Source of the DNA: Acidobacteriota bacterium
GTDB taxonomy: Bacteria > Acidobacteriota > Thermoanaerobaculia > Multivoradales > J023
Reading direction: 5' to 3'
Assembly (NCBI GenBank): GCA_039029035.1
Contig: JBCCGX010000001.1
Span: 1 to 42,557, forward strand
Length of the DNA: 42,557 nucleotides
The notes beneath the pieces were generated by a model. That model saw nothing but the letters and a program-made list of their open reading frames with translations, was not told the origin of the DNA and searched no databases. Shown piece after piece: positions 7,678 through 42,557 of the stretch. The translations under genes were made by a program, and so were the position numbers. Numbering within the stretch: the first letter of the stretch is position 1; each line of letters begins with the position of its first letter.

Positions 7678-7683
7678 GGTGGC

Positions 7684-17438: not shown

Positions 17439-20400
17439 TCAGTCGAGGGTCAGGCGTTGCCAGCCGCCGTCTCCGACTTGGTTGTCCGGATTCTTCACCT
17501 TGACTCCGATCCAGTTCCAGTTTTGGGGATCGGGCTGGAAGGGATCTGTCGGCAGCGGCGGCTCGTTGATGTTGAAGGTCGGGTTGACCGGCGGACCCTG
17601 ATCGAGCAGGGCGTTCTGTACTCCGGGAGCGTGCGGGCCGCCGAGCATCGTCATGTAGTACATCAGCGCATCGAGCTCCACCGCCGTCTCCCAGGTCCGG
17701 CTGCCGTCCGCCAGCACCTCGTCGGTGGGGTGGATCGGCAGCTCGATCTCGAGCAGGGTCGGCTGGTTCGGATCGTCGATCGGCAAAGTGGGATCGGGCG
17801 CCGGTCCTCCGATCTGATCCTGCCGATAGAGCAGGAGCTTGGCGCCTTGCAGAATGTTCTTGCCCGACACGCGGAAGCGCCGCGATGGGTCGTGCCGGAT
17901 CTCTTCGAGGCCGAAGCCCTGTCCGATCAAGGCATGCTGGAAGAGGCGCACGACATGGGGAAAGAACCCACCATGGTCTTCTTCGTAGCCCAGGCTCGGG
18001 TTGGTGGGATCGGTGAGCTCGGCCCAGAAGCGGGTCATTTGGGGTACGTCGGCATAGGCCGTGTTGGGGCGCATCGGCTGCAGCATCAGGTAGTCCGGCG
18101 CCGCGGTGTTCGAGAGCTGCGACACCGCCGTGGTCGGCGAGGCGACACGGCGCTCGCTGCCCAGGGGTGTGCCGGTCAACACCAGCCGATCGTCGCTGGT
18201 GGTCAGCAAGTTGAGCAGCCCTTGAAAGGTGAACGGCGAGCCCCCGGGCTCCTCACGGTAGGTCGGTGCGACACCGGTGACGTCATACCAGAAGCCGCGA
18301 TCGCCGCTGGCCGAGAAGAATTGCGCCGCCAGGCCGATATTGGCGACTTTCGCCTGGTCTTGCAGCACCTGGGCGGCCAGGTTCGCCAGGTTCAGGGAGG
18401 TCGGGTCGACCGGATCGTGCACCCGGTCGTCGGCGGTGTAGGGGATGCCGGCCAGCGGCGCGACGCCCCAATCCATCTCGTGGACGAATTGGTTCAACGC
18501 TTCGAGCTCGTCGCAAAGCTCGAACACCCCCGGGGTGACCGGCGTCTGGCACATGTCGGAGAAGAAGAACTGGTTGAAGGCGTTGATGCTCGCCAGGCGG
18601 TTGGCGTTCGGTAGCAGGATGTTCTGGTCGGAAAAGAAGCCGGTGTGGGCCATACCCTCGAGACCAGACAGCGGCGACAGCTGCGGGAAGTCGGAGCCGC
18701 TGCGGTCGAGCCGGGCCTCTTTCTGGAACAGGCCGCGCAACGCCGCCGTCTCGATCGGCTGGTTGGCCAGCGGAAGGCCAGCACGGTCGAACGGGGAGTC
18801 GCCTTCGATGAACTCGGTCAGCTTGTTGTTGCTGCCCTCGGGCAAGGCGTGGCAGTGGACGCAAGACCGGCTGTCGGAGTTGAGCATGTGGTAGATCTTC
18901 ATCCCTAGCTGGGCCCCCGTGCCGCGGTTCGGATCCACCGCGTCGACGCTGTCGGGATCGCCAAAATCACCGCTGAATGCGCGGCCGAGCGGCTGCTTGG
19001 GGTTGGGTGGGTAGTGCACCGAGTTGATGTACTCCTCGTAGTCTTCCATCTGATCGTCGGTGAGCTCGTTGTTGCGGCCGAGGAGCGAGACGAAAGCCGG
19101 GTTGAAATCGATGAAGGTGGCGTTGTCGCCTCGCCAATGGTACGGAGCGTTGGTCGTCAGTTGCTGGGTGGTGGGGTCGAGCTCGAAGTTGAGCAAACCT
19201 TGCAGCGACTGAGTGACCATGAACTCCTTGTCATCGGGCCAGTTGAAGAGCACCGGATTGCCAATCATGTCGTCGAGGCCAGCAGGAAATGCCGGGCCGG
19301 CGGTAGCCGGTGTGCCGAGGTGCCAGGCAAGACCGTCGGTGCGCGCATCCGTATGGCAGCTGGCGCAAGAGTCGAAGCCGTTGCCCGATAGCTTGGCGTC
19401 GTAGAGGAAGCGCTGGCCGATCAAGATGTAATCTGGTCGGGGATCGTGGTTCAGCCGCACGTTGTCGAGCTCGGTCTCGGCCACCGGATCGATAATGGTC
19501 AGCGAGTTCTCCAACCGGTTGAGCACGTAGAGGCGCTGCATGGGTCCATCCATCAAGGCCAGGGCGCGGGGCCCTGCCTTGGCGACGTTCGGCGCACCGG
19601 CGAGGGAAACGTTGATCTTGCGCCGTGGCCAGGTGTTCGGGTTGGTGGCGAAATTGGGCTCCAAGACACCGACCCGATCCGAGCCAAAGGCGGTAAAGAA
19701 GACCTTGAGCGATCCACCGGGGGGCGTGAAGGCGACGATGCTGGTGAGCTGTGCCAGGGCGTCCTTCTTCTTCGCCGGCCCCACCAGCGGTAGAGGCTCG
19801 ATAGGCCTGGCCGCTGCTTTGCTGGTCGGTGTGGTGAGCGGGTCGAGGGGCAAACCGTTGGGTGGTTCGAAGATCACTGCCTGGGACACCAGGTTGACGT
19901 CGCGACCCTTGACTTGCGGAGCGGGGCCGCAGACGTCCTTCACCATGTAGACGAAGCTCTCGACAAAGCCGGTCGGTGCGGTCGCCACCACCGGCTCGGT
20001 CAGCCGGGTCTCGTTCAAGGCCTCGCCGGAGACGACGAAGAGGTCACCATTCGATAGGGTCATGTTGAAGTTGGTGCTACCGAGCTGACCGAGGTCGGAC
20101 ACCGTGAGGGCGGTGAGGTCGACGATGTAGAGGGCATAGTCGAAGTAGGTTGGATCGGTGCCGACGCTGGCCGATTCGTTGCCGCCCTTCATGCCGAGGA
20201 TCAACAGACAGTCGTTGTGTACGGCGATCGCCCGCGGCTCCTTCAAAGCGATTTGATCGGGCAGGGTGTCGCCGTCGAGGTCGCCTTTCTGTACTGCGGC
20301 GTCGATGAGGGCGAGGCCAGGCAGAGCGTCGAGGGTCAGGGCGTCGCGCCAGCCCCAGCCGTCGAGTGTCATGTGGGTGACGAAGAGGGTCTCCCGCGCT

Positions 20401-20852
20401 ACACCGGCCGGATCTTTGTCGTAGAAGGCGATGTCGACCGGCTCGTCACCGACGTAGGTGGTCTGCAGCAGCTTGGCGGCGAGCGAGCTCGGGCCGGAGG
20501 GGCCAGAGAGCTCGATGATGCTGATCGAGTCGCCGAGGAAGTTGGCAACGTAGAGCCACGATCGGCCGGCGTGGAAGCGCACCGTGACCGGCTCCAGGCC
20601 GACCCGGATGCGCAGCAAGAAGCGGTTGGCGATCGGTAGGGATTCGTCGGTATCCCAGATCTCGATCGAGTTGTCCGGAGTGTTGCACACGGCGAGATAG
20701 GTATGACCGTCGACCTGCGCCAGCTCGAGCGGGTGTACCTGGGGGCTTTCGACATTCATGTAGGTCGTGCGCCCCTGGCCCATCGCCGGCACGCTGCAGA
20801 GCAGCGCAGCCGCGAGCATCATTCGGACGACTTTTCCCAGTCCCTCTTGCAT
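17439..20852 (-). CDS. Secreted beta-propeller protein fused to a di-heme cytochrome c peroxidase/MauG-like domain (larger paralogue of 2140-5064)
   Basis: ORF 17439..20987. ATG at 20852 has the SD aggaaaggagag and a signal peptide MMLAAALLCSVPAMGQ. It shares the N-terminal ESPQVHPL block with the paralogue. CASCH lies at 19353-19367 and CVHCH at 18849-18863. YHWRGDN corresponds to HHWRGDR in the paralogue. Confidence 0.7.
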   Translation of the reverse strand: MQEGLGKVVRMMLAAALLCSVPAMGQGRTTYMNVESPQVHPLELAQVDGHTYLAVCNTPDNSIEIWDTDESLPIANRFLLRIRVGLEPVTVRFHAGRSWLYVANFLGDSISIIELSGPSGPSSLAAKLLQTTYVGDEPVDIAFYDKDPAGVARETLFVTHMTLDGWGWRDALTLDALPGLALIDAAVQKGDLDGDTLPDQIALKEPRAIAVHNDCLLILGMKGGNESASVGTDPTYFDYALYIVDLTALTVSDLGQLGSTNFNMTLSNGDLFVVSGEALNETRLTEPVVATAPTGFVESFVYMVKDVCGPAPQVKGRDVNLVSQAVIFEPPNGLPLDPLTTPTSKAAARPIEPLPLVGPAKKKDALAQLTSIVAFTPPGGSLKVFFTAFGSDRVGVLEPNFATNPNTWPRRKINVSLAGAPNVAKAGPRALALMDGPMQRLYVLNRLENSLTIIDPVAETELDNVRLNHDPRPDYILIGQRFLYDAKLSGNGFDSCASCHTDARTDGLAWHLGTPATAGPAFPAGLDDMIGNPVLFNWPDDKEFMVTQSLQGLLNFELDPTTQQLTTNAPYHWRGDNATFIDFNPAFVSLLGRNNELTDDQMEDYEEYINSVHYPPNPKQPLGRAFSGDFGDPDSVDAVDPNRGTGAQLGMKIYHMLNSDSRSCVHCHALPEGSNNKLTEFIEGDSPFDRAGLPLANQPIETAALRGLFQKEARLDRSGSDFPQLSPLSGLEGMAHTGFFSDQNILLPNANRLASINAFNQFFFSDMCQTPVTPGVFELCDELEALNQFVHEMDWGVAPLAGIPYTADDRVHDPVDPTSLNLANLAAQVLQDQAKVANIGLAAQFFSASGDRGFWYDVTGVAPTYREEPGGSPFTFQGLLNLLTTSDDRLVLTGTPLGSERRVASPTTAVSQLSNTAAPDYLMLQPMRPNTAYADVPQMTRFWAELTDPTNPSLGYEEDHGGFFPHVVRLFQHALIGQGFGLEEIRHDPSRRFRVSGKNILQGAKLLLYRQDQIGGPAPDPTLPIDDPNQPTLLEIELPIHPTDEVLADGSRTWETAVELDALMYYMTMLGGPHAPGVQNALLDQGPPVNPTFNINEPPLPTDPFQPDPQNWNWIGVKVKNPDNQVGDGGWQRLTLD

Positions 20853-21037
20853 GGAGCTCTCCTTTCCTGACGAGTTGGGCTGCCGGAGAGCTGCAGCATC
20901 CGTTGGCGTAACGTAATGAGATATTGCGCTAATTCGATGGGTTGCTGTAGACAACCCCGCGAAGCAGCGCGGTCGCTCGGCCGGCAACGTGTAACGGACG
21001 ACTTAGTCAATAACGTCCGTTTTGTGCCGGAGAGGGG

Positions 21038-25756: not shown

Positions 25757-26605
25757 CTACCACATGGCGATGATGCGCAGCGGTGCGCCGCTGCCGCCTT
25801 CGATCTTCATCGGCAGCGCCACCACGAGGAAGTCCTTCGCTGGTAGCTGATCGAGATTGGCGACGTTCTCGAAAGCCGGGATCTCGGCCTCGAAGAGAGC
25901 GACATGGCTCTCGTAGAGGGTGCTCTGACCGTAGTCGATCGAAGGCGTGTCGAGGCCGATGGCGGCGATGTTGCGCTCGGCCACGAGCCACTCGGCAGCG
26001 GCCGGGCCGAGACCGGGGAAGTGGAGCTCAGGGACCGCTTCCGGTCCGGTCCGGTCGGTGCCCAGGTAGGCGCTGCGATCGCCCCAATGCTGGCCATGGC
26101 CGGTGTTCACGAGAACGATCGCACCGTCCGGCAGCGTGCCATGGCGTGCCTCCCAGCCCTCCAAGTCGGCGACGCTGACCAGGTAGTCGGGATCCTGCGA
26201 CGCCCGTTCGCTGACGTCGACCACGACGCCGGGAGCAACCAAGCGATCGAGGGCGATGGCGTCGACCGTCGAGCGGCCTTCGGCGAAATGGATCGGCGCG
26301 TCGACGTGGGTGCCGCCGTGCTCGGCACTGGAAAAGCGATTGGCAGCGTAGTAGTAGCCCTTGTCGGTGTGACCGGCGGCGAGGATCTCGAGATCGAAAC
26401 CCTGGGTGTCCGTCGGCCAGTAGATGGTGGTCGGACCGAAGGCATGGGTCAGGTCGACCAAGTTCTCTGGCGTCGACGGGCCGGCGTCCGCCGTCTCGGC
26501 CGGCGTGGCTTCGGTAGCGGCCGGCGGTGTGGGCTGGGGCGCACAGGCGCCGAGCAGAGCGAGTATTGCGGTCAGGGCCAGCCGGGGGGTGGGCGATCCG
26601 AGCAT
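25757..26605 (-). CDS. Cyclase family protein (kynurenine-formamidase-like), secreted/lipoprotein
   Basis: Signal peptide with LLGAC. Metal motif HGGTHVDAPIH. DLTHAF near the N-terminus. The SD ggagga sits before the ATG at 26605. Confidence 0.8.
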   Translation of the reverse strand: MLGSPTPRLALTAILALLGACAPQPTPPAATEATPAETADAGPSTPENLVDLTHAFGPTTIYWPTDTQGFDLEILAAGHTDKGYYYAANRFSSAEHGGTHVDAPIHFAEGRSTVDAIALDRLVAPGVVVDVSERASQDPDYLVSVADLEGWEARHGTLPDGAIVLVNTGHGQHWGDRSAYLGTDRTGPEAVPELHFPGLGPAAAEWLVAERNIAAIGLDTPSIDYGQSTLYESHVALFEAEIPAFENVANLDQLPAKDFLVVALPMKIEGGSGAPLRIIAMW

Positions 26606-26791
26606 GGTTTGTCCTCCGGAGTTTCGTGTCGGTGACTCTCACCTGCCATCCTACCGTGATCATTCTGTGAACCGCCGCTGTTATAGTCGCCGATCATTCG
26701 AGCGAAGCGATGAAGAGACGGGCCTTACAGCGCCTTCCACAAAGAAGACCTCCAGCGTCGAGGGCACGGCGAATGCCGAGGCGATACGACC

Positions 26792-28579
26792 ATGATGCAT
26801 AGAGCCGTGTCGGACACGGAGGCCTTCGGCGCTGGTTTGCCGGGTCCAGTCGATCGCTCGACCGAGACGAAGCAAGAAGGCAGGGGTTGTTGGTGCGGTG
26901 CGGCCCGGCTCGAAGCCCTCGGGGCTGACTACGGCCGCTGTTCGGATTGCGGTACCGTGGTCTACAACCAGCCCTACGACCCGACTGACTACCTCGGAAC
27001 CGGCCCATCGGATTTTTATGGTGACCGCTACTGGGAGCGGCACGTTCCCGAGCACCTCGGTCTGCCGCGGTTGGCGGAGCGTGGCAGGACCGATCTACCG
27101 GATCGCTCGGTCTACCACCTCACGCGCATCCTCGACCATCTGGCCCCTGGGAGCCGTGTCCTGGAGCTCGGCTGCGGTTCCGGTAGCTTGACCTACCTCT
27201 TGCGGCAGGCCGGCTTCGATGCCCTGGGCCTCGAGATGGGCCCCGGGGTGATCGCCTGGGCGCGCCAGCACTTTGCTATCGACGTAGTGCGTGGGCCGCT
27301 CGAAGCTCTCGCCGAGACCGAGACCTTCGATGCGATCGTCGCCATCGATGTTTTGGAGCACCTGCCCGATCCTCAGACCACGCTGCAGCATTGTGCGCAG
27401 CACCTCGAGAAGGGCGGCCTGCTCTTCCAGCAAACGCCTCGATACCGCGGTGAAGGGCCGGACTGGGAGATGCTGCTGCCGCGCGAGCACCTTTATCTGT
27501 TCACCGAGGAGGCGGTCGAGCGCCTCCTCGTCGAGGCGGGATTCGACGCTGTTTCGACCAGCGACAGCCTCTTCCCCTATGACATGTGGGTGGTCGCGTC
27601 GCGTCGCGCGCTGGTTCAGCGTCCCGATCCCCTCCAAGGGGTGACACCGGTCGCCCTCGCTTTGATTGATGCTTATGCTGCCCTCGAGGCGATTCGCGTC
27701 GAGAACCAGGCGATCCGGGCGGATCGGGAGGCACAGGAGGAGGTCAATGCCCGACTGAGCCGCGATCTCGAGTCGATGCGCGACGACCAGCAGGCGAAAG
27801 ATGCCCTGCTACAGGAGCAGGACCGACAGATCGCCAGTCTGCGAGACGATCAACAGCAGAAAGAAGCGCTCATCCGTCGTTTGTCTGGCGATTTGGGCGA
27901 CGTCCGAAACGATCAGCAGGCGAAGAGCGACCAGATCGACGGTTTGAGCACTGATCTGGGCTCGGCCCGGTGCGATCTGGAGGCAGTCCGGGCCGATCAG
28001 CGGGCCAAGGGTGATCTGATCGATCAGTTGACCGCGAACCTGGAGGCGGTGGGTGTTGATCGGCAGGCGAAGAGCGACCTGATCGATGCACTGAGCACCG
28101 AGCTGGAGTCGGTGCGTGGCGATCAGCAAGCCAAGGAAGGTCTGATCGGCCGCTTGAATGCCGAGCTGGAGTCGGTGCGTGGCGATCAGCAAGCCAAGGC
28201 GGACCTGATCGGTCGCCTGAACACCGATCTCGAGTCGACGCGCGCCGACCAGCAGGCCAAAGAAGCCTTGATCGATCGCTTGAGCTCCGACCTCGAGTCG
28301 ACTCGCGAGGACCAGCAGGCCAAGGGCGAGGTCATCCGACGCCTGCACGACAAGCTCCGACCGCTGCAGGCCGACCAGATTCTGAAGGGGCAGCGGATCG
28401 ATCAGCTGACCGCTGAGCTGGCCGAAGTGATGCACGATCAGCAGGCGCGGGCTGAGACGATCGACCGTCTCGACCAGGAGCTCCGGACGGCGAATGCAGA
28501 GCTCGAAGCGATTCGTGCGGGGCGCCTCTATCGTTGGTCCCAGGCGCTGCGATATCGAGTCAGTAAGGGGCGCCGCTGA
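26792..28579 (+). CDS. Class I SAM-dependent methyltransferase with an N-terminal Cys4 zinc-ribbon and a ~280-aa C-terminal coiled coil built from 21-residue repeats
   Basis: CWCG...CSDCG, then SAM motif I VLELGCGSGSLT, then about 12 repeats of the form R.DQQAK..LI.RL..DLES., then a basic aromatic tail GRLYRWSQALRYRVSKGRR. The stop codon overlaps the next gene's ATG (TGATG). Confidence 0.8.
   Translation: MMHRAVSDTEAFGAGLPGPVDRSTETKQEGRGCWCGAARLEALGADYGRCSDCGTVVYNQPYDPTDYLGTGPSDFYGDRYWERHVPEHLGLPRLAERGRTDLPDRSVYHLTRILDHLAPGSRVLELGCGSGSLTYLLRQAGFDALGLEMGPGVIAWARQHFAIDVVRGPLEALAETETFDAIVAIDVLEHLPDPQTTLQHCAQHLEKGGLLFQQTPRYRGEGPDWEMLLPREHLYLFTEEAVERLLVEAGFDAVSTSDSLFPYDMWVVASRRALVQRPDPLQGVTPVALALIDAYAALEAIRVENQAIRADREAQEEVNARLSRDLESMRDDQQAKDALLQEQDRQIASLRDDQQQKEALIRRLSGDLGDVRNDQQAKSDQIDGLSTDLGSARCDLEAVRADQRAKGDLIDQLTANLEAVGVDRQAKSDLIDALSTELESVRGDQQAKEGLIGRLNAELESVRGDQQAKADLIGRLNTDLESTRADQQAKEALIDRLSSDLESTREDQQAKGEVIRRLHDKLRPLQADQILKGQRIDQLTAELAEVMHDQQARAETIDRLDQELRTANAELEAIRAGRLYRWSQALRYRVSKGRR
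27713..28516 (+). repeat. Coding tandem array of about twelve 63-bp (21-codon) units, two of them 84 bp
   Basis: Read directly. For example, gagtcggtgcgtggcgatcagcaagccaagg occurs twice 63 bp apart (near 28104 and 28167). Neighbouring units are diverged copies. Confidence 0.9.
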
Positions 28580-30738
28580 TGCGGGTCGGCATCCACCTGC
28601 AGTCGTTGCGGCCGGGGGAGATCGGCGGCTTGGAAGACTACGTGCGCCAGCTCTTGATGGCGGTGGCGCGGCTCGAGCCTGAAATCACCTTCGTCCTTTT
28701 CGCTGCCGAATACAACCTGGCGACCTTCGCCGACGATCCTCGGCTCGAGAAGCACCTGCTCTCGGCCGAAGACTTCGCCGCTCTCGACGCAGAGCGCTTG
28801 GCGGCGTATGGACTCGACTTGTGGTTTTGCCCCCTTTTGGTGCTCGAACCACCCGATCCCGGCCTGCCGACCGTCGTCACGATGCCGGATCTGCAGCACG
28901 AAGTCTTTCCTCAGTTCTTTTCCGAGCAGATTCTGGAGTGGCGTCGGCACAACTACCGACTGACGGTCGAGAAGGCGGATCGCATCCTGACTTTTTCAAA
29001 CGACTCGAAGCAGCAGATCGTCACGTCTCTCGGGGCGGATCCCGAACGGGTGGTGGTGACCTACCTCGACGCGGCTGCGGAGTTCGAGTCGGCCGCCGAG
29101 CCGGACCAGGGTCAGCGCGGGGCGCTGCGCGCACGCTACCGGGATCGGCTGCCGGAGGCTGTTCGCCTTGCCGGTGACTACCTCTTTTACCCGGGGGCCG
29201 CGTGGCCGCACAAGAACCATCGCCTACTCTTCGAAGCCCTGGTGCGCCTCTCGAGCGAGCACGGGATCGAGCCCCACCTGGTGCTCACCGGGGCACAGGT
29301 CGAGGGCGCGGCAGATCTCGAGCAGTCTTGCCGCGACCTCGGGCTGGACGATAGGGTGCACTTTCTGGGCTATGTGCCGCGGGAGGATATGCCGCTTCTC
29401 TACGCTGGGAGTTTGGCAACGGTCTTCCCGTCGCTGTTCGAAGGCTTCGGCATTCCGGTGGTCGAAGCGATGCGCGCCGGCAGCCCGGTGATCTGCTCCT
29501 CCGCCGCGAGCCTGCCGGAAGTCGGCGGCCAAGCGGCGCTCTACTTCGATCCCCAGCAGGTCGACGAGCTGGTCGACCGATTGCGTCAGGTCTGGACCAC
29601 ACTGCAGATCGAGAGCCCGAGGGGCAGGGCAGCGCGGGAAGAGCTGCAGGCGGCCGGATTCCAGCAGGCCCAGCAGTTTTCCTGGCAGCAGACCGCGGCG
29701 ACGACCCTCGAGGTGTTTCGGGCCGTCGGCGCCTCCCATAGAAACCCACCGGAGACCGACTCGTCGGCTGATGCATCGACGGCCGCGGCCGAGGCTTTGC
29801 CCGCCGCCTCCCAGCAACCCTTGATCACGGTGGTTACGCCATCTTTCAATCAGCAGGCGTTCATCGAGCGGACGGTGCGCAGTGTGCTCGACAACGGTTA
29901 CCCCTCGGTTGAGCATTGGGTCGTCGATGGCGATTCCACCGACGGTACAGTGGCAACGCTCGAACAGCTTCGGCAGACGTTTCCCGACCGTCTACATTTC
30001 GTCTCCGAGCCCGACCGGGGCCAGGCCCACGCGGTCAACAAGGGCTTTGACCGCGCCAGCGGAGAGATCGTCGGCTGGCTCAATTCAGACGACACCTACG
30101 AGCCGGGCTGCCTGCAGGCGGTGGCTGCCTTCTTTGCCCAACATCCCGAGTGCGACGCGGTCTATGGCCGGGCGCATTATGTCGACGAGAACGACCAGTT
30201 GCTCGGGGTCTATCCCACCCGGACCGAGTTCGATTGGCAGACCCTGGCCCATGAGTGTTTTATCTGCCAGCCAACGGTCTTCCTGCGCCGTCGACTGCTC
30301 GACCGTGGGCTGCGCCTCGACGACAGCCTTCAAATGTGCATGGACTACGACTTCTGGATCCGCCTGGGCCGCGACCATCAGGTGCGGTTTCTCGACCAGG
30401 TCCTGGCCAGCTCTCGCATGTACGAGGACAACAAGACCCTGGCGCGGCGTTCGGAGGTCTACCGCGAAGTCTTCCTCACGGTGAAGCGGCACTATGGTCG
30501 TTTGCCTTTCTCCTGGGCCCTCGGCCGAGCCCATCATGTTTGGGATCATGGTGATCCCTTCTTCAACATTCGCCGCCTGACGTGGGTGACCTACCTCATC
30601 GCGCTCTTCTTTCTGTTGCGCCATAACTGGTCGAATCCGCGCGACTGGCGCAACTTGGCGCGTGAAGTGTGGGTACCGCTGCGCGCCAAGCTGCAAAAGC
30701 GTTGGCGAGCGCTGTCGACGCGTGACTCCACCACCTGA
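28579..30738 (+). CDS. Bifunctional glycosyltransferase: N-terminal GT4 (GT-B) domain fused to a C-terminal GT2 (GT-A) domain
   Basis: The GT4 E-x7-E block is EGFGIPVVEAMRAGSPVICS. After an Ala/Ser-rich linker the GT2 blocks are ITVVTPSFNQ, VVDGDSTDGT, DRGQAHAVNKG and WLNSDDTY. Confidence 0.85.
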   Translation: MRVGIHLQSLRPGEIGGLEDYVRQLLMAVARLEPEITFVLFAAEYNLATFADDPRLEKHLLSAEDFAALDAERLAAYGLDLWFCPLLVLEPPDPGLPTVVTMPDLQHEVFPQFFSEQILEWRRHNYRLTVEKADRILTFSNDSKQQIVTSLGADPERVVVTYLDAAAEFESAAEPDQGQRGALRARYRDRLPEAVRLAGDYLFYPGAAWPHKNHRLLFEALVRLSSEHGIEPHLVLTGAQVEGAADLEQSCRDLGLDDRVHFLGYVPREDMPLLYAGSLATVFPSLFEGFGIPVVEAMRAGSPVICSSAASLPEVGGQAALYFDPQQVDELVDRLRQVWTTLQIESPRGRAAREELQAAGFQQAQQFSWQQTAATTLEVFRAVGASHRNPPETDSSADASTAAAEALPAASQQPLITVVTPSFNQQAFIERTVRSVLDNGYPSVEHWVVDGDSTDGTVATLEQLRQTFPDRLHFVSEPDRGQAHAVNKGFDRASGEIVGWLNSDDTYEPGCLQAVAAFFAQHPECDAVYGRAHYVDENDQLLGVYPTRTEFDWQTLAHECFICQPTVFLRRRLLDRGLRLDDSLQMCMDYDFWIRLGRDHQVRFLDQVLASSRMYEDNKTLARRSEVYREVFLTVKRHYGRLPFSWALGRAHHVWDHGDPFFNIRRLTWVTYLIALFFLLRHNWSNPRDWRNLAREVWVPLRAKLQKRWRALSTRDSTT

Positions 30739-31867
30739 ATCACCCCCCCTGGTCTCGGTGGTGACGCCGTCCCTGAATCAGGGACGCTTCCTGCGCCATG
30801 CGATCGACAGCGTGCTGGCCCAGACCAGCGTCCCCGTCGAGCTGTTGGTGATGGACGGCGGATCGACCGATGAGACGCTCGACGTCCTCGCGACCTACGG
30901 CGATCGCATCCGTTGGGTCAGTGAGCCCGACGACGGCCAGTCCGATGCCATCAACAAGGGCTTTGCGCTGTGCCGGGGCGAGATCCTCGCCTGGCTCAAT
31001 GCCGACGATGTCTACCTGCCTGGCGCTATCGAGCGCGGTGTCGCCGAGCTCGAGCACCATCCCCGGGCCGACCTGGTCTACGGCCGCGGGGCAATTCTCG
31101 ACGCGGAGGGCCGTGAGACCGGGCCCTTTGCCGGCATCGAGCCGTTCAACCTTTGGCGCTTGCTCCACGGGCTCGACTACGTCCTGCAGCCCGCGACGTT
31201 CTTCCGCCGTGCCGCCTTCGAAGCCGTGGGCGAGCTCGATCGCGATCTGCACTACGCGATGGATTGGGATCTGTGGATCCGCCTCGCCGGCCACGGCGAG
31301 GTGCGCTTCATCGACCAGGTTCTCGCCGGCTCGCGCGAGTATGGCGACACCAAGACCGCCACCGGCGGCTGGCGACGGATCCGCGAGCTCGCTCGTCTGG
31401 TGCAACGCCACACCGGCCGGCGCTTCAGCCCCGGGGTCAAGCTGTATGCCCTGGACACCCTGCGACGGCAATGGGGGGCCGCGCTGCCGCCGTTGGCCGG
31501 TGCGGTCGACTCGGCCGTCGCCTTCGCCTCGCGGCGGATCATGCAGGCCACACCGGTCCACGCCGACGGTTGGCTCGGGCCACAGGCGGCCTTGGTCGTA
31601 CCGCGGCGGTGGGGGAGCTTTGCAGTAACCCTCGAAGCCCATCGCATACCGTCGAGCGGGCGCTTCGCTGTTCGGTTTGCGACCCGTCGAGGACCCCTGG
31701 GCACCTGGATCGTCGAACGCCCGGGTGCCGAGACGCTCCGCTTCGTGCTGCCGTCAGATCTCGCGGAGACCTTCGTTGACGTCCGGGTCGAAAGCGACTT
31801 CGCTTTCTCGACTCGCGAAGATCGTCGCCGGTTGGCGGTACGCTGCTCGGAGTTGCGACCGGCCTGA
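30722..31867 (+). CDS. GT2 family glycosyltransferase (paralogous to the GT2 half of the preceding gene)
   Basis: VSVVTPSLNQ, VMDGGSTDET, DDGQSDAINKG and WLNADDVY. The start is uncertain: GTG at 30722 overlaps the upstream stop region, and the ORF track starts at GTG 30662. Confidence 0.8.
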   Translation: MTPPPESPPLVSVVTPSLNQGRFLRHAIDSVLAQTSVPVELLVMDGGSTDETLDVLATYGDRIRWVSEPDDGQSDAINKGFALCRGEILAWLNADDVYLPGAIERGVAELEHHPRADLVYGRGAILDAEGRETGPFAGIEPFNLWRLLHGLDYVLQPATFFRRAAFEAVGELDRDLHYAMDWDLWIRLAGHGEVRFIDQVLAGSREYGDTKTATGGWRRIRELARLVQRHTGRRFSPGVKLYALDTLRRQWGAALPPLAGAVDSAVAFASRRIMQATPVHADGWLGPQAALVVPRRWGSFAVTLEAHRIPSSGRFAVRFATRRGPLGTWIVERPGAETLRFVLPSDLAETFVDVRVESDFAFSTREDRRRLAVRCSELRPA

Positions 31868-35808: not shown

Positions 35809-38622
35809 ATGCGAGATCGATTCCTCCGTTGTCCCCGCTCCGTCTTCGCTCTGTGTCTGGTGCTGGTGCTGAGCGCTTCCCACGCCGGCGCCCAATCTTC
35901 GGGTGACGCGTTGTGGAGCGACGTCGACGAGTCGTCACTCGGCTTTGTCGCCAAGCGCACGATCGTTCCCGAGCGCTACCGCTCTCTGCATCTCGATCTG
36001 ACCGCGCTGGAGGGTCACCTCGCCTCGACGCCCCTCGAGGAGTCGGCTGACGTGGCGTCGCGTGGAGTCGTTCTGAGCTTGCCGATGCCGGAGGGCGGCT
36101 TCCAGCGCTTCCGCATCGTCGAGTCGCCGATCATGGCACCGGGACTGGCTGCCAAGTTTCCCGAGATCCGCACCTATAGCGGCCAGGGCATTGATGACCC
36201 GCAGGCTACGCTGCGCTTCGATGTCACGCCAGCCGGCTTCCACGGCATGATCCTGTCGCCGAGCGGCAGCGTCTACATCGATCCCTACAGCCAAGACGAC
36301 ACGCGGCACTACATGAGCTATCTGGCGCGCCACGCCAAGGGTGAGGGGCGGGTGTTCGAATGTGGCGTGCAGGGCCACGATGTCGCCCCCGGACATCGGC
36401 ATACGGTGCCCAACAAGGTCGTTTCGGGCACCACCTTGCGGACCTATCGCCTGGCGGTCGCGGCGACGGGAGAATACACCGCCTTCCATGGTGGCACCGT
36501 GGCCCAGGGCCAGGCGGCGATCGTCACCGCGATGAACCGGGTCAACGGGATCTACGAGCGTGAGGTGGCGATCCGCATGGTGCTGGTGGCGAACAACGAC
36601 CAGGTGGTCTACACCAACGGCGGCTCCGATCCCTACAGCAACGGGAGTGGTGGCGCCATGCTGGGCCAGAACCAGAGCAACCTGGACTCGGTGATCGGTA
36701 GTGCCAACTACGACATCGGCCACGTCTTCTCGACCGGCGGCGGTGGTGTCGCCTCCCTGCGGGTGCCCTGTATCAACGGCTCCAAGGCGCGCGGCGTCAC
36801 CGGTCAGCCGGCGCCGACCGGCGACCCTTTCTGGGTTGACTTCGTCGCTCACGAAATGGGCCACCAGTGGGGTGGCAACCACACCTTCAACGGTAGCTCC
36901 GGCAGCTGTGCTGGCGGCAATCGCAACGGCTCCACCGCCTACGAGCCGGGCAGTGGCTCGACCATTCAGGCCTATGCCGGGATCTGCGGAGCGCAAGATC
37001 TGCAGCCCAACAGCGATCCCTACTTCCACGGCCTCAGCCTGGACGAGATCGTCGCCTACTCGGCCAATGGCAACGGTGACAACTGCGCTGTGCGGACATC
37101 GACGGGTAACAACCCGCCGTCGGTCGACGCCGGAGCGGCCTTCACCATTCCGCTGGAGACCCCGTTCGAGCTCTGTGGCTCGGCGACCGACCCAGAGGGT
37201 GATGCCCTGACCTATGGCTGGGAGCAGTTCGATCTCGGGCCGACCGGCGCGCCGAACAGCCCGAGCGGCAACGCGCCGATCTTCCGCTCCTTCAACCCGA
37301 CGACCTCACCCTGTCGGACCTTCCCGCAGCTCAGTGATCTGCTGGCCAACACCCAGACGATCGGCGAGCTGTTGCCAACCTACGCACGGACGATGAACTT
37401 TCGTCTGACGGCGCGCGACAATCGCGCCGGCGGCGGTGGGGTGGCCGACGACGCCACCACCGTTACCGCCTCCAGCGTCGGCGGTCCGTTTCGGGTCACC
37501 GCCCCCAACACCGCAGTGACCTGGGCGGTGGGTACCTCCCAATCGGTCACCTGGAACGTCGCCGGCACCGACTTGTCGCCGATCAACTGCTCGTCGGTCG
37601 ACATCTCGCTGTCCACCGACGGCGGCTCGACCTACGGCGTCAGCCTGGCTTCCGGGGTGCCCAACTCGGGCAGTCAATCGATCACCGTGCCGGCGGCGGC
37701 GACGACCTCGGCGCGCCTCAAGGTGCAGTGCTCGAACAACATTTTCTTCGATATCTCGAACGCCGATTTCACCATCGACGGCACCTCCGGCACGCCGCCG
37801 ACGGTCAACATCAGTGCCCCCGCCGATGGCTCGTCGTCGACGGTCGGCGACTCGGTGACTTTCACCGGCACCGCCAACGATGTCGAGGACGGCAACCTCA
37901 CCGCCAGCCTGAGCTGGAGCTCGTCGATCGACGGCACGATCGGCAGCGGCGGCTCGTTCGCCACCACGGCGCTCAGCGTCGGCAGTCACACCATCACCGC
38001 TTCAGTGACCGATTCGAGCGCCCTCACCGGTTCGGATTCGATCTCGATTACGGTGCTTGGCACCGGTGGCGGCCCACAAACGGCAGTCTTCGACTCTGGC
38101 CTGGGCGTGCCAGCCTGTGCTCTCGTCGGCAGCTCGTGTGACAGCACGACGCTGCTCGTCGGCCGTGACGGCAACGGCCCCGAGCCCAACCAGCCCAACA
38201 CGCTGGACGGCTGCGCCGACGGCACGTCGGGCTCGTTCCAAGCCGACGAGTCCAACGACAGCCTCTTCGTCACCACCCTCGACGGCAGCGACATGGTGGA
38301 GGGCGCCACGGTGCGCATCGACGCCGAGGTCTGGGCCTGGACGACGCCGGCGGAGGATACCTTGGATCTCTTCTTCACCGCCGACGCCAACAACCCGAGC
38401 TGGACCCTGATCACCTCGATCACCCCGACGGTGGTCGGCCAGCAGACTCTGTCGGCGACCTACACCCCGGTTACGCACAGATCCGCCCATCAACGGAGTA
38501 TCTCTGTCATTCGCAACACGCCTATCTGGGTTTTATGTACGTGTCGGCGGAGTTTCGGGGGCAAGGCGTTAACAAAGTGCTGCTGCGGCGCCTTCTTGCA
38601 TGGTGTCGGGATGAAGGGGTAG
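35809..38622 (+). CDS. Secreted metzincin-type zinc metalloprotease (reprolysin-like), with its native 3' end lost at the compositional junction near 38470
   Basis: Signal peptide VFALCLVLVLSASHAGAQ. The extended zinc motif HEMGHQWGGNH (36850-36882) matches HExxHxxGxxH. A long beta-rich C-terminal region follows. After about 38470 the reading frame runs into foreign, lower-GC DNA and ends at a fortuitous stop. Confidence 0.75.
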   Translation: MRDRFLRCPRSVFALCLVLVLSASHAGAQSSGDALWSDVDESSLGFVAKRTIVPERYRSLHLDLTALEGHLASTPLEESADVASRGVVLSLPMPEGGFQRFRIVESPIMAPGLAAKFPEIRTYSGQGIDDPQATLRFDVTPAGFHGMILSPSGSVYIDPYSQDDTRHYMSYLARHAKGEGRVFECGVQGHDVAPGHRHTVPNKVVSGTTLRTYRLAVAATGEYTAFHGGTVAQGQAAIVTAMNRVNGIYEREVAIRMVLVANNDQVVYTNGGSDPYSNGSGGAMLGQNQSNLDSVIGSANYDIGHVFSTGGGGVASLRVPCINGSKARGVTGQPAPTGDPFWVDFVAHEMGHQWGGNHTFNGSSGSCAGGNRNGSTAYEPGSGSTIQAYAGICGAQDLQPNSDPYFHGLSLDEIVAYSANGNGDNCAVRTSTGNNPPSVDAGAAFTIPLETPFELCGSATDPEGDALTYGWEQFDLGPTGAPNSPSGNAPIFRSFNPTTSPCRTFPQLSDLLANTQTIGELLPTYARTMNFRLTARDNRAGGGGVADDATTVTASSVGGPFRVTAPNTAVTWAVGTSQSVTWNVAGTDLSPINCSSVDISLSTDGGSTYGVSLASGVPNSGSQSITVPAAATTSARLKVQCSNNIFFDISNADFTIDGTSGTPPTVNISAPADGSSSTVGDSVTFTGTANDVEDGNLTASLSWSSSIDGTIGSGGSFATTALSVGSHTITASVTDSSALTGSDSISITVLGTGGGPQTAVFDSGLGVPACALVGSSCDSTTLLVGRDGNGPEPNQPNTLDGCADGTSGSFQADESNDSLFVTTLDGSDMVEGATVRIDAEVWAWTTPAEDTLDLFFTADANNPSWTLITSITPTVVGQQTLSATYTPVTHRSAHQRSISVIRNTPIWVLCTCRRSFGGKALTKCCCGAFLHGVGMKG

Positions 38623-38726
38623 ACACGGCCTATCTGGATGTTTATTCCGAGAACAAGGCGGCGGTGAGAGCCTACGAAAAAGCCGGGTTTCAGGCCTCAA
38701 TGACAGAGATGAAGCTGCACTTGTGA
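38478..38726 (+). pseudogene. GNAT family N-acetyltransferase, C-terminal fragment only
   Basis: YLGFMYVSAEFRGQGVNKVLLRRLLAWCRDEGVDTAYLDVYSENKAAVRAYEKAGF is the acetyl-CoA-binding (R/Q-x-x-G-x-G/A) core plus the C-terminus. The N-terminal ~90 aa of a normal GNAT are absent because the frame begins at the junction. Confidence 0.7.
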
Positions 38727-38775
38727 CAGGAAAAGCGGCAAGAGTGTTACTAACCAATAGGGAGTTGACCAGGCT

Positions 38776-39378
38776 ATGAGTGGATTGCACAAGATGTTTC
38801 TACTGGCGGCGATGCTGTTTGTGTTCGGTTGCGACACGTCAGAACCCGCGAAAGAATCGCAGGCTGCAACTGCTGTTGCCGAGCAAGTGGCTGATTTTCC
38901 ACTGGTGTTTCGCCGTACCACTTTGATTGTTCGGGATGTTGAGGCGTCGCTGGCGTTGTATCGCGATGCGCTTGGGATGGAGGTTATCTACGACAACATA
39001 ATTCGCAGGCCACACCCGACAGAAGACAGGGAACGACAAATACGTTTGGTGTTCCTGAAGGCAACGCATAATTTCTATGGCGTACTGGGTTTGGTCGATT
39101 ATGAATACCAAAACCCGGATGCACCTGAGAAGCCGGTGCGCAAAGAAGGCTTTACGCCTCAGAATGTGGTCCTTGTTTTCAATTCGGAAAAACTTGAGGC
39201 GCAATTTCAACAAATTCGTTCAACGCCCGGCGTAGAAATATTGACGGAGCCGAAGCTCACCGAGTATCCGTCCTACGATGGCACGGAGATATTGCGCGTG
39301 ATGGTGAGCAAGTTCTACGATCCGGATGGCTTTCTGGTGGAGCTAAACAGGTTGTTAGACCCGATAAAGCCTGAGTAG
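38776..39378 (+). CDS. VOC (glyoxalase/bleomycin-resistance/dioxygenase) superfamily lipoprotein
   Basis: Lipobox-like LFVFGC. VOC blocks RRTTLIVRDVEASLALYRDALGMEV and FYDPDGFLVELN. Confidence 0.7.
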   Translation: MSGLHKMFLLAAMLFVFGCDTSEPAKESQAATAVAEQVADFPLVFRRTTLIVRDVEASLALYRDALGMEVIYDNIIRRPHPTEDRERQIRLVFLKATHNFYGVLGLVDYEYQNPDAPEKPVRKEGFTPQNVVLVFNSEKLEAQFQQIRSTPGVEILTEPKLTEYPSYDGTEILRVMVSKFYDPDGFLVELNRLLDPIKPE

Positions 39379-39445
39379 GCGTTTTGCGCCTATGTGCCAT
39401 GTTCGTGCTAAATTGTTTTTCAAAATCTAAAGGGGAGTAATCAGA

Positions 39446-39871
39446 ATGAGTCCAACTATAAAAAATATTCTGGCTGTAATTCTTGGTATTGTGATCGGCG
39501 GCGGAATCAACATGCTTATTGTGACGTATGGCGGTGCTGTTGTTCCGGCACCGGAGGGCGTCGATCCTTCCGATGTCGAGAGCATTAAGGCAAACCTACA
39601 TTTGTATGAGGCCAAGCACTTTGCCGTGCCATTTCTTGCACATGCGCTAGGTACCCTGGTAGGGGCGATTGTCGCCTTTATGCTGGCAGCAAACCGTAAG
39701 GCGATGTGCGCCTACATAATTGGTGTTGTGTTCTTGTTAGGCGGAATCGCCATGGCTGTCATGCTTCAGGGGCCCGTCTGGTTCATCTCTCTGGATGTTT
39801 TGGTTGCGTACATTCCCATGGCCTGGCTGGGCGCAAAAATTGGGGGTGGCTTACAAGGTGGCAATCAGTAA
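39446..39871 (+). CDS. Hypothetical small integral membrane protein
   Basis: 141 aa with about four hydrophobic segments. The good SD aaagggga sits upstream of the ATG. I recognise no family. Confidence 0.6.
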   Translation: MSPTIKNILAVILGIVIGGGINMLIVTYGGAVVPAPEGVDPSDVESIKANLHLYEAKHFAVPFLAHALGTLVGAIVAFMLAANRKAMCAYIIGVVFLLGGIAMAVMLQGPVWFISLDVLVAYIPMAWLGAKIGGGLQGGNQ

Positions 39872-39915
39872 GCATACTGCCTTGTCGTACAGACAATAAT
39901 TTGAAGGAATCCGTT

Positions 39916-40518
39916 ATGTTGCGCTGGCTTTTGCTTGCCTTTGTGTGTGTCTCCAGTATGGCGTGTGCCAGTACTGCAGAGGAGACCTGCATGAACTCAC
40001 CGTCGCAGACGCTTTATCTGAGCGATGGGCGCTACGAATGTAGAGAGGCTGCCAATGCCTGCGAGGAGGGTTTCGTGCAGGCGACGTCCACCGAAGAGTC
40101 CTGCAGTGCGAAGACCGGCTGTCAGTACGAGCCTGGACGTTGTTATTGCCCCTTCTACAAAGGGGTTCAGTGTATTTGTGCGATGGGTCCACCCCCGACG
40201 TGCGGCGCGGTAGCGCAGCACGGCGATGTGCGCGAAGAGCCAAATCTGCAAGCCTGGGATGAGCCCGGCAAGGCCTGGTTGGGTATGGAGGCTTTCTGGC
40301 AGGCGTACACGCAGCGCAATGGCGGACTGACCTGGGAGCGTAGCGCTGAGTACCCTGAGTACTCGAAAGTGAAAGAGCACGACACCTTCCTGGTTCAGCT
40401 ACCGCAAGGCGTGTGTCTGATGGAGTTTTTCCACACGCGCTGGCGCAGGGCCAACGACGTGCGTCGCTGGAACCCTGCCTTTAACGAGTACGGTGGCTGT
40501 CCTTATGTGTTCGACTAG
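39916..40518 (+). CDS. Hypothetical secreted cysteine-rich protein
   Basis: ATG at 39916 with the SD gaagga. Signal peptide MLRWLLLAFVCVSSMACA. Many Cys occur in the first ~100 mature residues, followed by a Trp/aromatic-rich C-terminal half. I recognise no family. Confidence 0.6.
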   Translation: MLRWLLLAFVCVSSMACASTAEETCMNSPSQTLYLSDGRYECREAANACEEGFVQATSTEESCSAKTGCQYEPGRCYCPFYKGVQCICAMGPPPTCGAVAQHGDVREEPNLQAWDEPGKAWLGMEAFWQAYTQRNGGLTWERSAEYPEYSKVKEHDTFLVQLPQGVCLMEFFHTRWRRANDVRRWNPAFNEYGGCPYVFD

Positions 40519-40539
40519 TCTTTTGCTGAGTATTCGTTA

Positions 40540-40914
40540 ATGGCCGAGCTTCGTCGATTCGATGCAACGAAATTCAGTTGCGATATTTTTGGTGACTTTT
40601 CCATGCAACCGCGGGAGTTTTTGCCCGGACCACCTGTCAGGAAAGACAGCGTTAACGTTGGCATTATCACGATGACCGAAAACGCGCCGCATGGCGGCGA
40701 GGTGCATCCGGATGGTGATGAATTTTTGTACGTGATCTCCGGCCGTTTGCGGGTCAGCGGCGATAATCTGGGTGACATTGAGTTAGGCCCGGGTGAGGGT
40801 TGTATTGTGCCGCAGGGCGAATGGCATAAAGTTGACGTGCTGGAAGTTACGCAATTGATTTATATGACGCCTGGTCCTAACGGCGACCACCGGCCGTTGC
40901 CGGATGCCGAGTAG
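40540..40914 (+). CDS. Cupin domain protein
   Basis: GGEVHPDGDEFLYVISGRL (cupin motif 1) and GEGCIVPQGEWHKV (motif 2). Length 124 aa. Confidence 0.7.
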   Translation: MAELRRFDATKFSCDIFGDFSMQPREFLPGPPVRKDSVNVGIITMTENAPHGGEVHPDGDEFLYVISGRLRVSGDNLGDIELGPGEGCIVPQGEWHKVDVLEVTQLIYMTPGPNGDHRPLPDAE

Positions 40915-41203
40915 GCAGTACTCAATGACTGGCTCACCAAAACGTCTGAAGATGCCTCTGTGGATGCATGGCTTCGATGCGGTCTGTTTTCTCGTGGCAG
41001 GGCTTTGCATGATTGCCTATGTTGGTAAGGATAAAGGAGGCGTTCCTGCCTGGATTCCAGACTGGAGCCTGATTCCGGAACATCCTGTGCCTATTGGTCT
41101 GACCGCCATGTTTCTGGGCAGCATTCCGCAGATGTTGTATGCCGCAAGGGCAATGGCTGCGCGCCGTGCACAGATGCATCAAGGCGCCCCTCGCGACGAT
41201 TAA
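40904..41203 (+). CDS. Hypothetical small membrane protein
   Basis: Two hydrophobic segments (FDAVCFLVAGLCMIAYV and PIGLTAMFLGSIPQMLYAA). The start is uncertain (ATG at 40904, 40925 or 40952). No clear SD. Confidence 0.45.
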   Translation: MPSRQYSMTGSPKRLKMPLWMHGFDAVCFLVAGLCMIAYVGKDKGGVPAWIPDWSLIPEHPVPIGLTAMFLGSIPQMLYAARAMAARRAQMHQGAPRDD

Positions 41204-41337
41204 TCCGCATATAGACGCAAACTGGACAAATGGTGCCAGTGCTACTCCTGCGGTGACAGAAAAATCCGGTATTTGCTAAGCTCTGCAGCGCAGCAAACAA
41301 GGCCTGTTTGCGACTTGTTATCTAAGGAGAGCTTCAC

Positions 41338-42177: not shown

Positions 42178-42242
42178 TCGCGAATAGTTGATGAGCTTCG
42201 GTGTGATAAAGTCACCGTACTTGTCCACCGGAGCTCTCAGCG

Positions 42243-42509
42243 ATGCCTGCATTTACCTCGCGCCATGCTCTTGCGCTGCTCGCGCTTACCGTTTGCCAGC
42301 TGCTGACGCGGGTGAGCTTCGCCGGTAAAGGTGCGGTCTATTCTCTCGGCGTGGTGGTCAATCAAACCTTAACTTTCCTGTCAGTCGCGCTGAGTTACCT
42401 CCCAGGTCTTGCCGGCATAGTTATTGCGACTGCCGTCGGAGTCTCGTTGGGTCAGCGGTTTTATTCTGCACAAGTTAGCTCGCAGGGCCAGGACTCTACG
42501 CATGTCTGA
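42243..42509 (+). CDS. Hypothetical small membrane protein
   Basis: 88 aa with two or three hydrophobic segments. Its stop overlaps the next ATG (ATGTCTGA), suggesting translational coupling. Confidence 0.45.
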   Translation: MPAFTSRHALALLALTVCQLLTRVSFAGKGAVYSLGVVVNQTLTFLSVALSYLPGLAGIVIATAVGVSLGQRFYSAQVSSQGQDSTHV

Positions 42510-42557
42510 AATAAAGTTTGCAGCGGAAGAAAAAAAGATACTGGTCGCCCGTATTCA
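42502..42557 (+). CDS. 5' end of an ORF running off the window (MSEIKFAAEEKKILVARI...), possibly DUF2164-like
   Basis: ATG at 42502 overlaps the preceding stop. Only 18 codons are visible, and the family guess rests on a weak recollection of similar N-termini. Confidence 0.3.
   Translation, partial: MSEIKFAAEEKKILVARI

Follow-up and report, generated by a model that had tools for sequence, protein, structure and literature searches.

A zinc-ribbon methyltransferase with a 38-heptad coiled coil in Acidobacteriota: a candidate chain-length ruler analogous to WbdD

The methyltransferase/coiled-coil gene and its cassette

The subject of this analysis is a gene for a methyltransferase joined to a long coiled coil (MT-CC), which lies at the head of a glycosyltransferase (GT) cassette in a 42,557-nucleotide stretch of DNA from an Acidobacteriota bacterium (contig JBCCGX010000001.1, positions 1 to 42,557; hereafter, the window). 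An initial annotation, made from the sequence alone, had likened the encoded protein to WbdD, the terminating enzyme of Escherichia coli O9a, and had suggested that its coil might act as a ruler for the length of a glycan. As described below, the features of the protein, its homologs, and their gene neighborhoods lend support to this analogy, and we consider it probable, with moderate confidence, that MT-CC is a chain-terminating ruler. The features of the cassette are collected in Table 1.

Table 1. Features of the MT-CC cassette in the window (aa, amino acids; ORF, open reading frame; SAM, S-adenosylmethionine).
Feature	Position (nt)	Strand	Description	Basis
MT-CC gene	26792..28579	+	methyltransferase/coiled coil, 595 aa	ORF list and translation
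Zinc-ribbon-like element	26888..26965	+	Cys4, residues 33-58 (CWCG...CxxCG)	conservation, AlphaFold2, Foldseek
Methyltransferase core	27119..27556	+	class I, SAM-dependent, residues 110-255, motif VLELGCGSG	Pfam
Joining helix	27647..27715	+	conserved helix joining methyltransferase to coil, residues 286-308 (ALIDAYAALEA...)	AlphaFold2, conservation
Coiled-coil stalk	27716..28513	+	38 uninterrupted heptads	unit map, periodicity, AlphaFold2
Direct repeats	28098-28136, 28161-28199	+	two 39-bp perfect repeats, 63 bp apart, in units 6-8	exact-repeat scan
C-terminal tail	28514..28576	+	basic, aromatic (RAGRLYRWSQALRYRVSKGRR), net charge +7	sequence, AlphaFold2, conservation
Stop/start overlap	28577..28581	+	TGATG, MT-CC gene to GT4-GT2 gene	direct sequence reading
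GT4-GT2 gene	28579..30738	+	GT4 (GT-B) and GT2 (GT-A) fusion, 719 aa, candidate two-module polymerase	Pfam
GT2 gene	30722..31867	+	GT2 glycosyltransferase, ~381 aa	Pfam Glycos_transf_2; frame read

At the N-terminus, the Cys4 zinc ribbon and the class I methyltransferase that had been proposed were both borne out, as was the absence of a kinase: Pfam assigns the methyltransferase core to Methyltransf_23 (E = 1.2e-28) and finds no kinase domain in MT-CC. The zinc-ribbon motif reads C33-W-C35-G ... C50-x-x-C53-G, in which C50 and C53 are invariant and C33, W34, C35, and G36 are at least 90% conserved among 24 homologs, and AlphaFold2 places three short strands in this element with a predicted local distance difference test score (pLDDT) above 90. 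For the AlphaFold2 model of residues 1-308 (pLDDT 90.2), the best fold matches in the PDB, as identified by Foldseek, were MtmC, KijD1, and TcaB9, zinc-containing C3-methyltransferases that act on sugars, in the form of nucleoside diphosphate (NDP)-sugars, and possess an N-terminal Cys4 zinc domain. The alignments span 275-306 columns including the zinc domain, with E ~1e-12, TM-scores of ~0.54, and sequence identities of 16-21%, and their E-values are barely better than those for generic methyltransferases. Residues H190 and E232-H233, which are invariant in the family, align with H181 and E224-H225 of TcaB9, the positions that were mutated in the deposited TcaB9 variant structures. The alignment stops near TcaB9 residue 252, after which the coiled coil comes next in MT-CC, and the C-terminal domain that is part of the 416-residue TcaB9 architecture has no counterpart. 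No NDP-4-keto-sugar pathway genes (NDP-sugar dehydratases, aminotransferases) were found nearby in the window, where the neighbors are glycosyltransferases. The catalytic module of MT-CC is a methyltransferase of the sugar type and not a homolog of WbdD.

The methyltransferase is joined to the coil by a helix that is kept as ALIDA or ALLDAN across clades, and AlphaFold2 runs this helix, from residue 286 onward, into the repeats as a single helix with pLDDT above 90. The repeat units begin at residue 309 and comprise ten of 21 residues and two of 28 (residues 372-399 and 547-574), or 266 residues in total, in agreement with the twelve or so tandem units over about 280 residues, two of them of 28, that were first described. 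If fully extended, at 0.1485 nm per residue, the stalk would measure ~39.5 nm. The 21-residue repetition is far above chance, with a lag-21 identity of 44.9% compared with 9.0 +/- 1.9% in 2000 shuffles (z = 19), and the hydrophobic periodicity at 3.5 residues has a power of 6.59, where no shuffle exceeded 1.47. In a set of 241 units from 70 homologs, strongly hydrophobic residues are found at unit positions 11 (97%), 14 (88%), 18 (99%), and 21 (67%), and the remaining places of a strict 3-4-3-4-3-4 spacing are filled by positions 4 (Q/R) and 7 (K/R); the aspartate at position 3 (D3) is present in 239 of these units. The unit therefore consists of two hydrophobic heptads and one heptad with a polar core, RxDQxAK. 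In the window coil, Q-I-L recurs cyclically in the a column and K-L-V in the d column, with all 38 heptads in phase, and a core of this kind, with Ile at a, Leu and Val at d, and a polar layer of Gln/Lys, fits a dimer or a trimer alike.

The full-length AlphaFold2 model, which is that of a monomer built from a 37-sequence alignment (mean pLDDT 82.9), is helical over residues 286-399, 425-575, and 578-591. The suggestion that the repeats form a coiled coil is upheld by these helices, by the in-phase a/d pattern, and by the heptad phase that is kept among homologs. Both the sequences and the model therefore support a repeat region that would behave as one continuous, heptad-phased coiled coil. 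The basic, aromatic tail noted at the end of the protein is likewise present, and is modeled as a separate short helix at residues 578-591. Its motif, DR(L/I/R)(Y/F)R...GGRR, is kept in the close clade, in heptad phase with the coil, and a related motif, SRIYRAxVxxGRW, is found at the coil/GT4 junction in several proteins in which the methyltransferase and a spacer are fused to a GT4.

In the GT4-GT2 fusion, Pfam matches Glycos_transf_1 at residues 201-338 and Glycos_transf_2 at residues 417-573. The stop codon of the MT-CC gene does overlap the ATG of this fusion, as had been claimed, and the resulting TGATG would couple the translation of the two genes. The GT2 gene that follows probably starts at a GTG, although its earliest possible start is at 30662. 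No transmembrane segment was found in the MT-CC, GT4-GT2, or GT2 protein, none of which has a 19-residue Kyte-Doolittle window above ~1.5. The C-terminus of the fusion (30579-30735) contains a 14-residue hydrophobic stretch with basic and aromatic flanks (RRLTWVTYLIALFFLLRHNW...WRNLAREVWVPLRAKLQKRWRAL), which lacks the length and the hydrophobicity needed to score as a transmembrane helix, and which could be an in-plane membrane anchor of the polymerase. NCBIfam returned nothing above its cut-offs for MT-CC or for either glycosyltransferase; its SMC matches to MT-CC reflect coiled-coil composition only and were discarded as a family assignment.

Coil length and gene context among homologs

The search for homologs yielded 74 proteins, with the closest genome matches being an unclassified 'bacterium' metagenome-assembled genome (62% identity), Acidobacteriota metagenome-assembled genomes (59-61%), and one Gemmatimonadota genome (51%). 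The distance between the first DADR anchor and the tail motif DR(L/I/R)(Y/F)R comes to an exact multiple of 7 in 21 of 25 close homologs, spanning 19-40 heptads, against a chance expectation of about 1 in 7; in the remaining four, the distance is offset by +4, a classic stutter. It therefore appears that coil and tail stay in one continuous helical phase while the length of the coil varies two-fold, and this conservation of phase would be the strongest test of a coiled-coil rod as opposed to a set of loose repeats.

Six loci, including the window, share a divergent cyclase gene upstream of the MT-CC gene and were on this basis regarded as syntenic orthologs. Their coils have 38 heptads in the window, 32 in L001, 30 in L008, 19 in L009, 24 in L010, and ~20.6 in L089. 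Repeat number, which the initial annotation had proposed to compare among relatives, does vary, and these sequences support a natural variation of coil length in heptad steps among orthologs. The shared neighbor is a cyclase/arylformamidase-like gene (PF04199; 25757-26605 in the window, minus strand), which lies divergently and immediately upstream of the MT-CC gene in the six genomes, and L089 additionally has S49 peptidase and Abhydrolase_11 genes in common with the window. The conservation of this PF04199 gene is probably a matter of plain synteny and not of a functional link.

At the level of DNA, Tandem Repeats Finder reports a 63-bp period only at 28016-28345, and the units are pairwise 41-81% identical, with units 7 and 8 forming the best pair. 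The 39-bp pair listed in Table 1 is the only long perfect repeat, and constitutes the sole substrate in the window for the in-frame gain or loss of one unit. The description of some of the 63-bp repeats as nearly identical was therefore overstated, because unit identity does not exceed 81% and there is but one 39-bp perfect repeat. The accompanying proposal, that recombination could change the length in quantal steps, stands in part: the length of the 39-bp repeat would in principle suffice, but it is single in the window. The case for recombinational change appears stronger in the homologs than in the window, as adjacent units are identical at 19-21 of 21 residues in several homologs, which shows that units were duplicated recently there. 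In L001 (protein P0009, on a 9.3-Mb contig), three tandem 7-residue units, ADRDKLR, occur in the C-terminal part of the coil just before the tail, so that duplications of one heptad take place in the family as well.

A profile of the N-terminal module retrieved 646 clusters (50% identity) at E <= 1e-30; in the best 150 of these 646, the whole module is covered and lengths range from 295 to 1259 residues. The family is found in Acidobacteriota, Verrucomicrobiota, Methylomirabilota, Gemmatimonadota, and other phyla. When the region after the methyltransferase was examined for internal repeats, 74 of 103 representatives had a best lag that is a multiple of 7 (21 in 34, 28 in 14, 42 in 11, 7 in 7, 35 in 6, and 14 in 2), and these lags, together with the near-identical adjacent units, therefore point to tandem duplication of heptad multiples as the family's general route of length change. 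Thirty of 145 representatives have at least 850 residues, and all six of the long members tested, plus L024 and P0070, proved to be fusions of methyltransferase, spacer, and GT4. Other domain combinations were also noted. P0093, P0095, and P0165 carry either two tandem methyltransferase domains or a sulfotransferase with two methyltransferases, which suggests multi-step terminal capping chemistries. At L045, from Geotalea toluenoxydans JCM 15764, one putative ORF (6269-8392, plus strand) combines ABC_tran, Wzt_C, and Sulfotransfer_1; this would be a fusion of the Wzt exporter ATPase with a sulfotransferase, ~2 kb upstream of the family methyltransferase.

The gene order MT-CC, GT4-GT2, GT2 is kept in all 11 loci of the close and intermediate clades (the window, L001, L002, L008-L012, and L089-L091). 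In these clades the GT4-GT2 gene follows the MT-CC gene directly, whereas in Verrucomicrobia a GT2 gene intervenes, and the MT-CC gene always precedes polymerase-type glycosyltransferase genes. Among distant members (34-44% identity), the ATP-binding cassette (ABC) exporter genes wzm and wzt are located within 10 kb in 11 of 18 distinct loci. At L003/L004 (Methylomirabilota), for example, the order is wzm, wzt (ABC_tran and Wzt_C), MT-CC, GT4, GT2, GT4, GT4, and Wzt_C is present at six loci altogether (L003/L004, L007, L017, L026, L027, and L045). In the verrucomicrobial loci L019, L020, L022, and L025, the set of MT-CC, GT2, and GT4-GT2 genes adjoins wzt and wzm; the verrucomicrobial members have one to three units only, and their Wzt lacks a cap-reading domain. 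This linkage to a transporter is lost in the window's clade.

A GT-C enzyme (PMT_2, ~710-725 residues) adjoins the cassette at the intermediate-clade loci L002 (16276-19576), L090 (16393-19681), and L091 (17278-19440), and at the Methylomirabilota locus L003 (56-1525). A GT4 gene and a radical SAM gene stand beside PMT_2 at L002 and L090, and lie elsewhere in the locus at L091. The recurrence of this neighbor is a hint that a step of modification or transfer takes place in the periplasm.

The genes around the cassette in the window are unrelated to it, and include, upstream, an S49 peptidase and the divergent cyclase and, downstream, proteases of the S8 and M12B types. One upstream ORF (26424-26795, plus strand) was set aside as probably spurious, because Pfam gave no match for it and the cyclase gene overlaps it on the opposite strand. 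Searches for tRNA genes, Rfam families, sigma-70 promoters, and intrinsic terminators gave nothing informative around the operon. Elsewhere in the window, positions 38001-42557 have a GC content of 0.54-0.55, compared with 0.62-0.68 across the remainder, and may represent a horizontally acquired segment; the genes in this stretch encode a glyoxalase-family protein (38776-39378), a 270-residue product that Pfam does not match (39706-40518), and a delta-class carbonic anhydrase (CA_like; 41338-42177). Two large paralogs of 974 and 1182 residues (2140-5064 and 17439-20987, respectively, both on the minus strand) are 32% identical over 315 residues, and both contain beta-propeller/lactonase-like repeats and CxxCH di-heme peroxidase-like (CCP_MauG) motifs. 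A small ORF that Pfam does not match precedes each of the two paralogs, and these two small ORFs are mutually unrelated.

A proposed ruler mechanism and its alternatives

The analogy between MT-CC and WbdD is supported by the phase of the coil, its steps in length, the linkage to glycosyltransferases, the presence of wzm and wzt near distant members, and the fusions with GT4. This support is granted because MT-CC reproduces the logic of terminator, coil, and polymerase with different parts. In the mechanism that we infer, MT-CC would be the terminator and ruler subunit of an assembly line for a polyprenol-linked polysaccharide at the cytoplasmic face. The basic tail, by binding to the membrane or to a glycosyltransferase, would anchor MT-CC at the inner membrane face beside the GT4-GT2 fusion and GT2, and the 38-heptad stalk, presumably a parallel homo-oligomeric rod and possibly a trimer, would hold the zinc-ribbon methyltransferase ~40 nm off the membrane. 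The chain would grow until its non-reducing end reaches the methyltransferase, at which point O-methylation of the terminal sugar would block further extension and, where Wzt carries Wzt_C, would mark the chain for export, the export route being presumptive in the case of the window. As the chain would stop upon reaching the methyltransferase, the length of the coil is proposed to set the length of the chain, and the coil itself would evolve through the gain or loss of heptad-multiple units.

A bolder form of this mechanism, which we hold to be doubtful, would have the stalk as an evolvable ruler, with 21-residue modules of ~3.1 nm added or removed by recombination, and the cassette as exporter-independent besides in the Acidobacteriota-like clade. 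If this is true, then lineages, and possibly subpopulations, would retune polysaccharide length by fixed steps, and the product would be a differently exported or non-exported, length-defined, methyl-capped glycan about twice the length that WbdD measures.

Several observations weigh against MT-CC as a chain-terminating ruler. The likeness of MT-CC to WbdD is architectural only. A metagenome scan with the MT-CC protein found no close (strain-level) relative. The hydrophobic moment of the tail is moderate, at 0.40-0.52, which does not depart from the range for the coil, and the tail motif is missing from many members of the wider family. Neither wzm nor wzt was detected in the 42.5-kb window, by Pfam analysis of ORFs of at least 185 residues or by tblastn with two queries each for Wzm and Wzt, nor were they present in such flanks as were available for the 10 other loci of the close and intermediate clades, and the window holds no gene for an initiating phosphoglycosyltransferase. 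Lastly, the AlphaFold2 monomer breaks the helix at residues 400-424, where pLDDT falls below 50.

If this break were real, the coil might fold back upon itself at a point lying exactly between two long helices, giving an antiparallel two-helix hairpin that would bring the tail beside the methyltransferase and would halve or abolish the spacer. However, the arms of such a hairpin would be unequal, at 114 and 151 residues; the heptad register passes straight through residues 400-424, where the unit sequences are normal; and single-unit indels among homologs would unbalance a hairpin while being neutral for a parallel oligomer. The continuity of the register and these indels make the hairpin highly improbable. 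When long homo-oligomeric coils are predicted as monomers, an artifactual fold-back is often the result, and, since both the register and the unit sequences continue through the region, the break in the model would be such an artifact. The lack of neighboring transporter genes raises a different possibility, namely that the ruler is the same but that its product has another destination in the window's clade: the length-defined glycan might remain cytoplasmic, as mycobacterial methylated polysaccharides do, might be moved to protein or lipid, or might be exported by other means. The contrast between close and intermediate loci, of which none of 11 has wzm and wzt nearby, and the distant loci favors this possibility, as do the absence of transmembrane segments from all three cassette proteins and the conservation of PMT_2, an extra GT4, and radical SAM genes in the intermediate clade, which hints at another downstream pathway. 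Yet it is common for transporter or initiating genes to be unlinked (E. coli O9a uses WecA, which is encoded elsewhere), the same gene set adjoins wzm and wzt in the four verrucomicrobial loci, and the basic tail suggests action at a membrane; we therefore regard a destination outside ABC-dependent export as distinctly unlikely.

The remaining alternatives concern the enzyme and the coil themselves. The coil could be a scaffold that oligomerizes and organizes the glycosyltransferases while the methyltransferase decorates internal or side-chain sugars, in which case coil length would be irrelevant to that of the polymer. Linkage to glycosyltransferases and fusion with them would indicate physical association and not termination, and the verrucomicrobial members, with their few units and a Wzt devoid of a cap-reading domain, indicate that a long ruler and cap recognition are dispensable there. 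Such a scaffold is nonetheless thought unlikely: heptad phase is strictly kept from the methyltransferase-proximal anchor to the tail in coils of 19-40 heptads, the methyltransferase is always at the coil end distal to the glycosyltransferase or tail, an oligomerization motif would need far fewer than 38 heptads, so that a spacer fits better, and the co-occurrence of Wzt_C at six loci points to a terminal cap. Alternatively, the catalytic module might methylate an NDP-sugar for use by the neighboring glycosyltransferases, in a similar manner to TcaB9, KijD1, and MtmC, with the coil serving as a tether. That these enzymes are the best fold matches over alignments that take in the zinc domain, and that the H...EH residues are common to the TcaB9 active site, would be in keeping with such a role. 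The modest TM-scores and the E-values barely distinguishable from those of generic methyltransferases argue otherwise, as do the substitution of the coil for the TcaB9 C-terminal domain and the want of NDP-4-keto-sugar pathway genes nearby, and it is not evident why a soluble enzyme of precursor synthesis would need a 40-nm stalk in heptad phase. A role in precursor methylation is thus very unlikely, and a chain-terminating ruler remains the favored account of MT-CC.

Comparison with known coiled-coil terminators

An extended coiled coil is a characteristic marker of terminators in ABC-transporter-dependent glycan assembly, in which the terminator occupies the coil's distal end and polymerase modules are fused or recruited proximally (PMC11231755). 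In WbdD, the coil is an experimentally tested ruler of ~20 nm (PMC5082667). WbdD from E. coli O9a/Klebsiella pneumoniae O3 and from O8/O5 shares with MT-CC an N-terminal chain-modifying enzyme, an extended coil, a C-terminal basic region, and a gene location beside the polymerizing glycosyltransferases, and the O9a gene order of wzm, wzt (Wzt_C), terminator, and GT4 is matched by the distant loci L003/L004. The missing kinase in MT-CC is no anomaly, because WbdD from E. coli O8 is a methyltransferase only (PMC3482155). Unlike WbdD, however, MT-CC carries a Cys4 zinc ribbon on its methyltransferase, its coil of 38 heptads has about double the length and consists of regular 21-residue units with the conserved polar-core heptad RxDQxAK, and no wzm or wzt lies near its gene in the window's clade. 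Its partner is a GT4-GT2 fusion, whereas WbdA consists of two or three mannosyltransferase modules. WbdD was itself absent from the matches of a single-sequence search of PDB sequences, from the best 60 matches of a 24-sequence profile search, and from the top 50 matches of two Foldseek searches, all of which gave generic methyltransferases and enzymes of the TcaB9 type instead, and was accordingly rejected as a homolog.

Single-chain versions of the same arrangement are known from Klebsiella pneumoniae, where O7 ORF6 has the order methyltransferase, kinase, coiled coil, GT2, GT2, and O12 WbbB comprises a terminating glycosyltransferase, a coiled coil, and polymerase glycosyltransferases (PMC11231755). 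The equivalent of this format is found in the fusions of methyltransferase, spacer, and GT4, and the window represents a split-gene version with a stop/start overlap, in which the polymerase is a separate polypeptide. In contrast to O7 ORF6 and O12 WbbB, the MT-CC family possesses neither a kinase nor a 3-deoxy-D-manno-oct-2-ulosonic acid (Kdo) transferase, GT4 replaces GT2-GT2 in the fusions, and the phyla are Acidobacteriota, Verrucomicrobiota, Methylomirabilota, and Gemmatimonadota. The third point of comparison is with TcaB9, KijD1, and MtmC, which resemble MT-CC in their N-terminal Cys4 zinc domain, Rossmann methyltransferase, and H/E-H residues, but in which a C-terminal domain takes the place of the coil and the context is deoxysugar biosynthesis instead of glycan polymerization.

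Coiled-coil rulers are the accepted explanation for the setting of chain length in ABC-transporter-dependent pathways, and have been tested mainly in Enterobacteriaceae. The two-fold variation in length that exists even between syntenic orthologs of MT-CC provides a natural experiment for the ruler hypothesis, which predicts that the length of a surface glycan could be read from sequence in abundant soil phyla, and modular 21-residue spacers would be usable for engineering glycan length. Because the principle of the ruler is already established, the finding is a useful extension and not a surprise; it overturns nothing, and would carry that principle into these soil phyla. In relation to the known systems, it is well supported that MT-CC constitutes a previously undescribed family within the known class of coiled-coil chain terminators, distinguished by its zinc-ribbon, TcaB9-like methyltransferase, its regular 21-residue unit, a stalk about twice that of WbdD, and the loss of transporter linkage in one clade.

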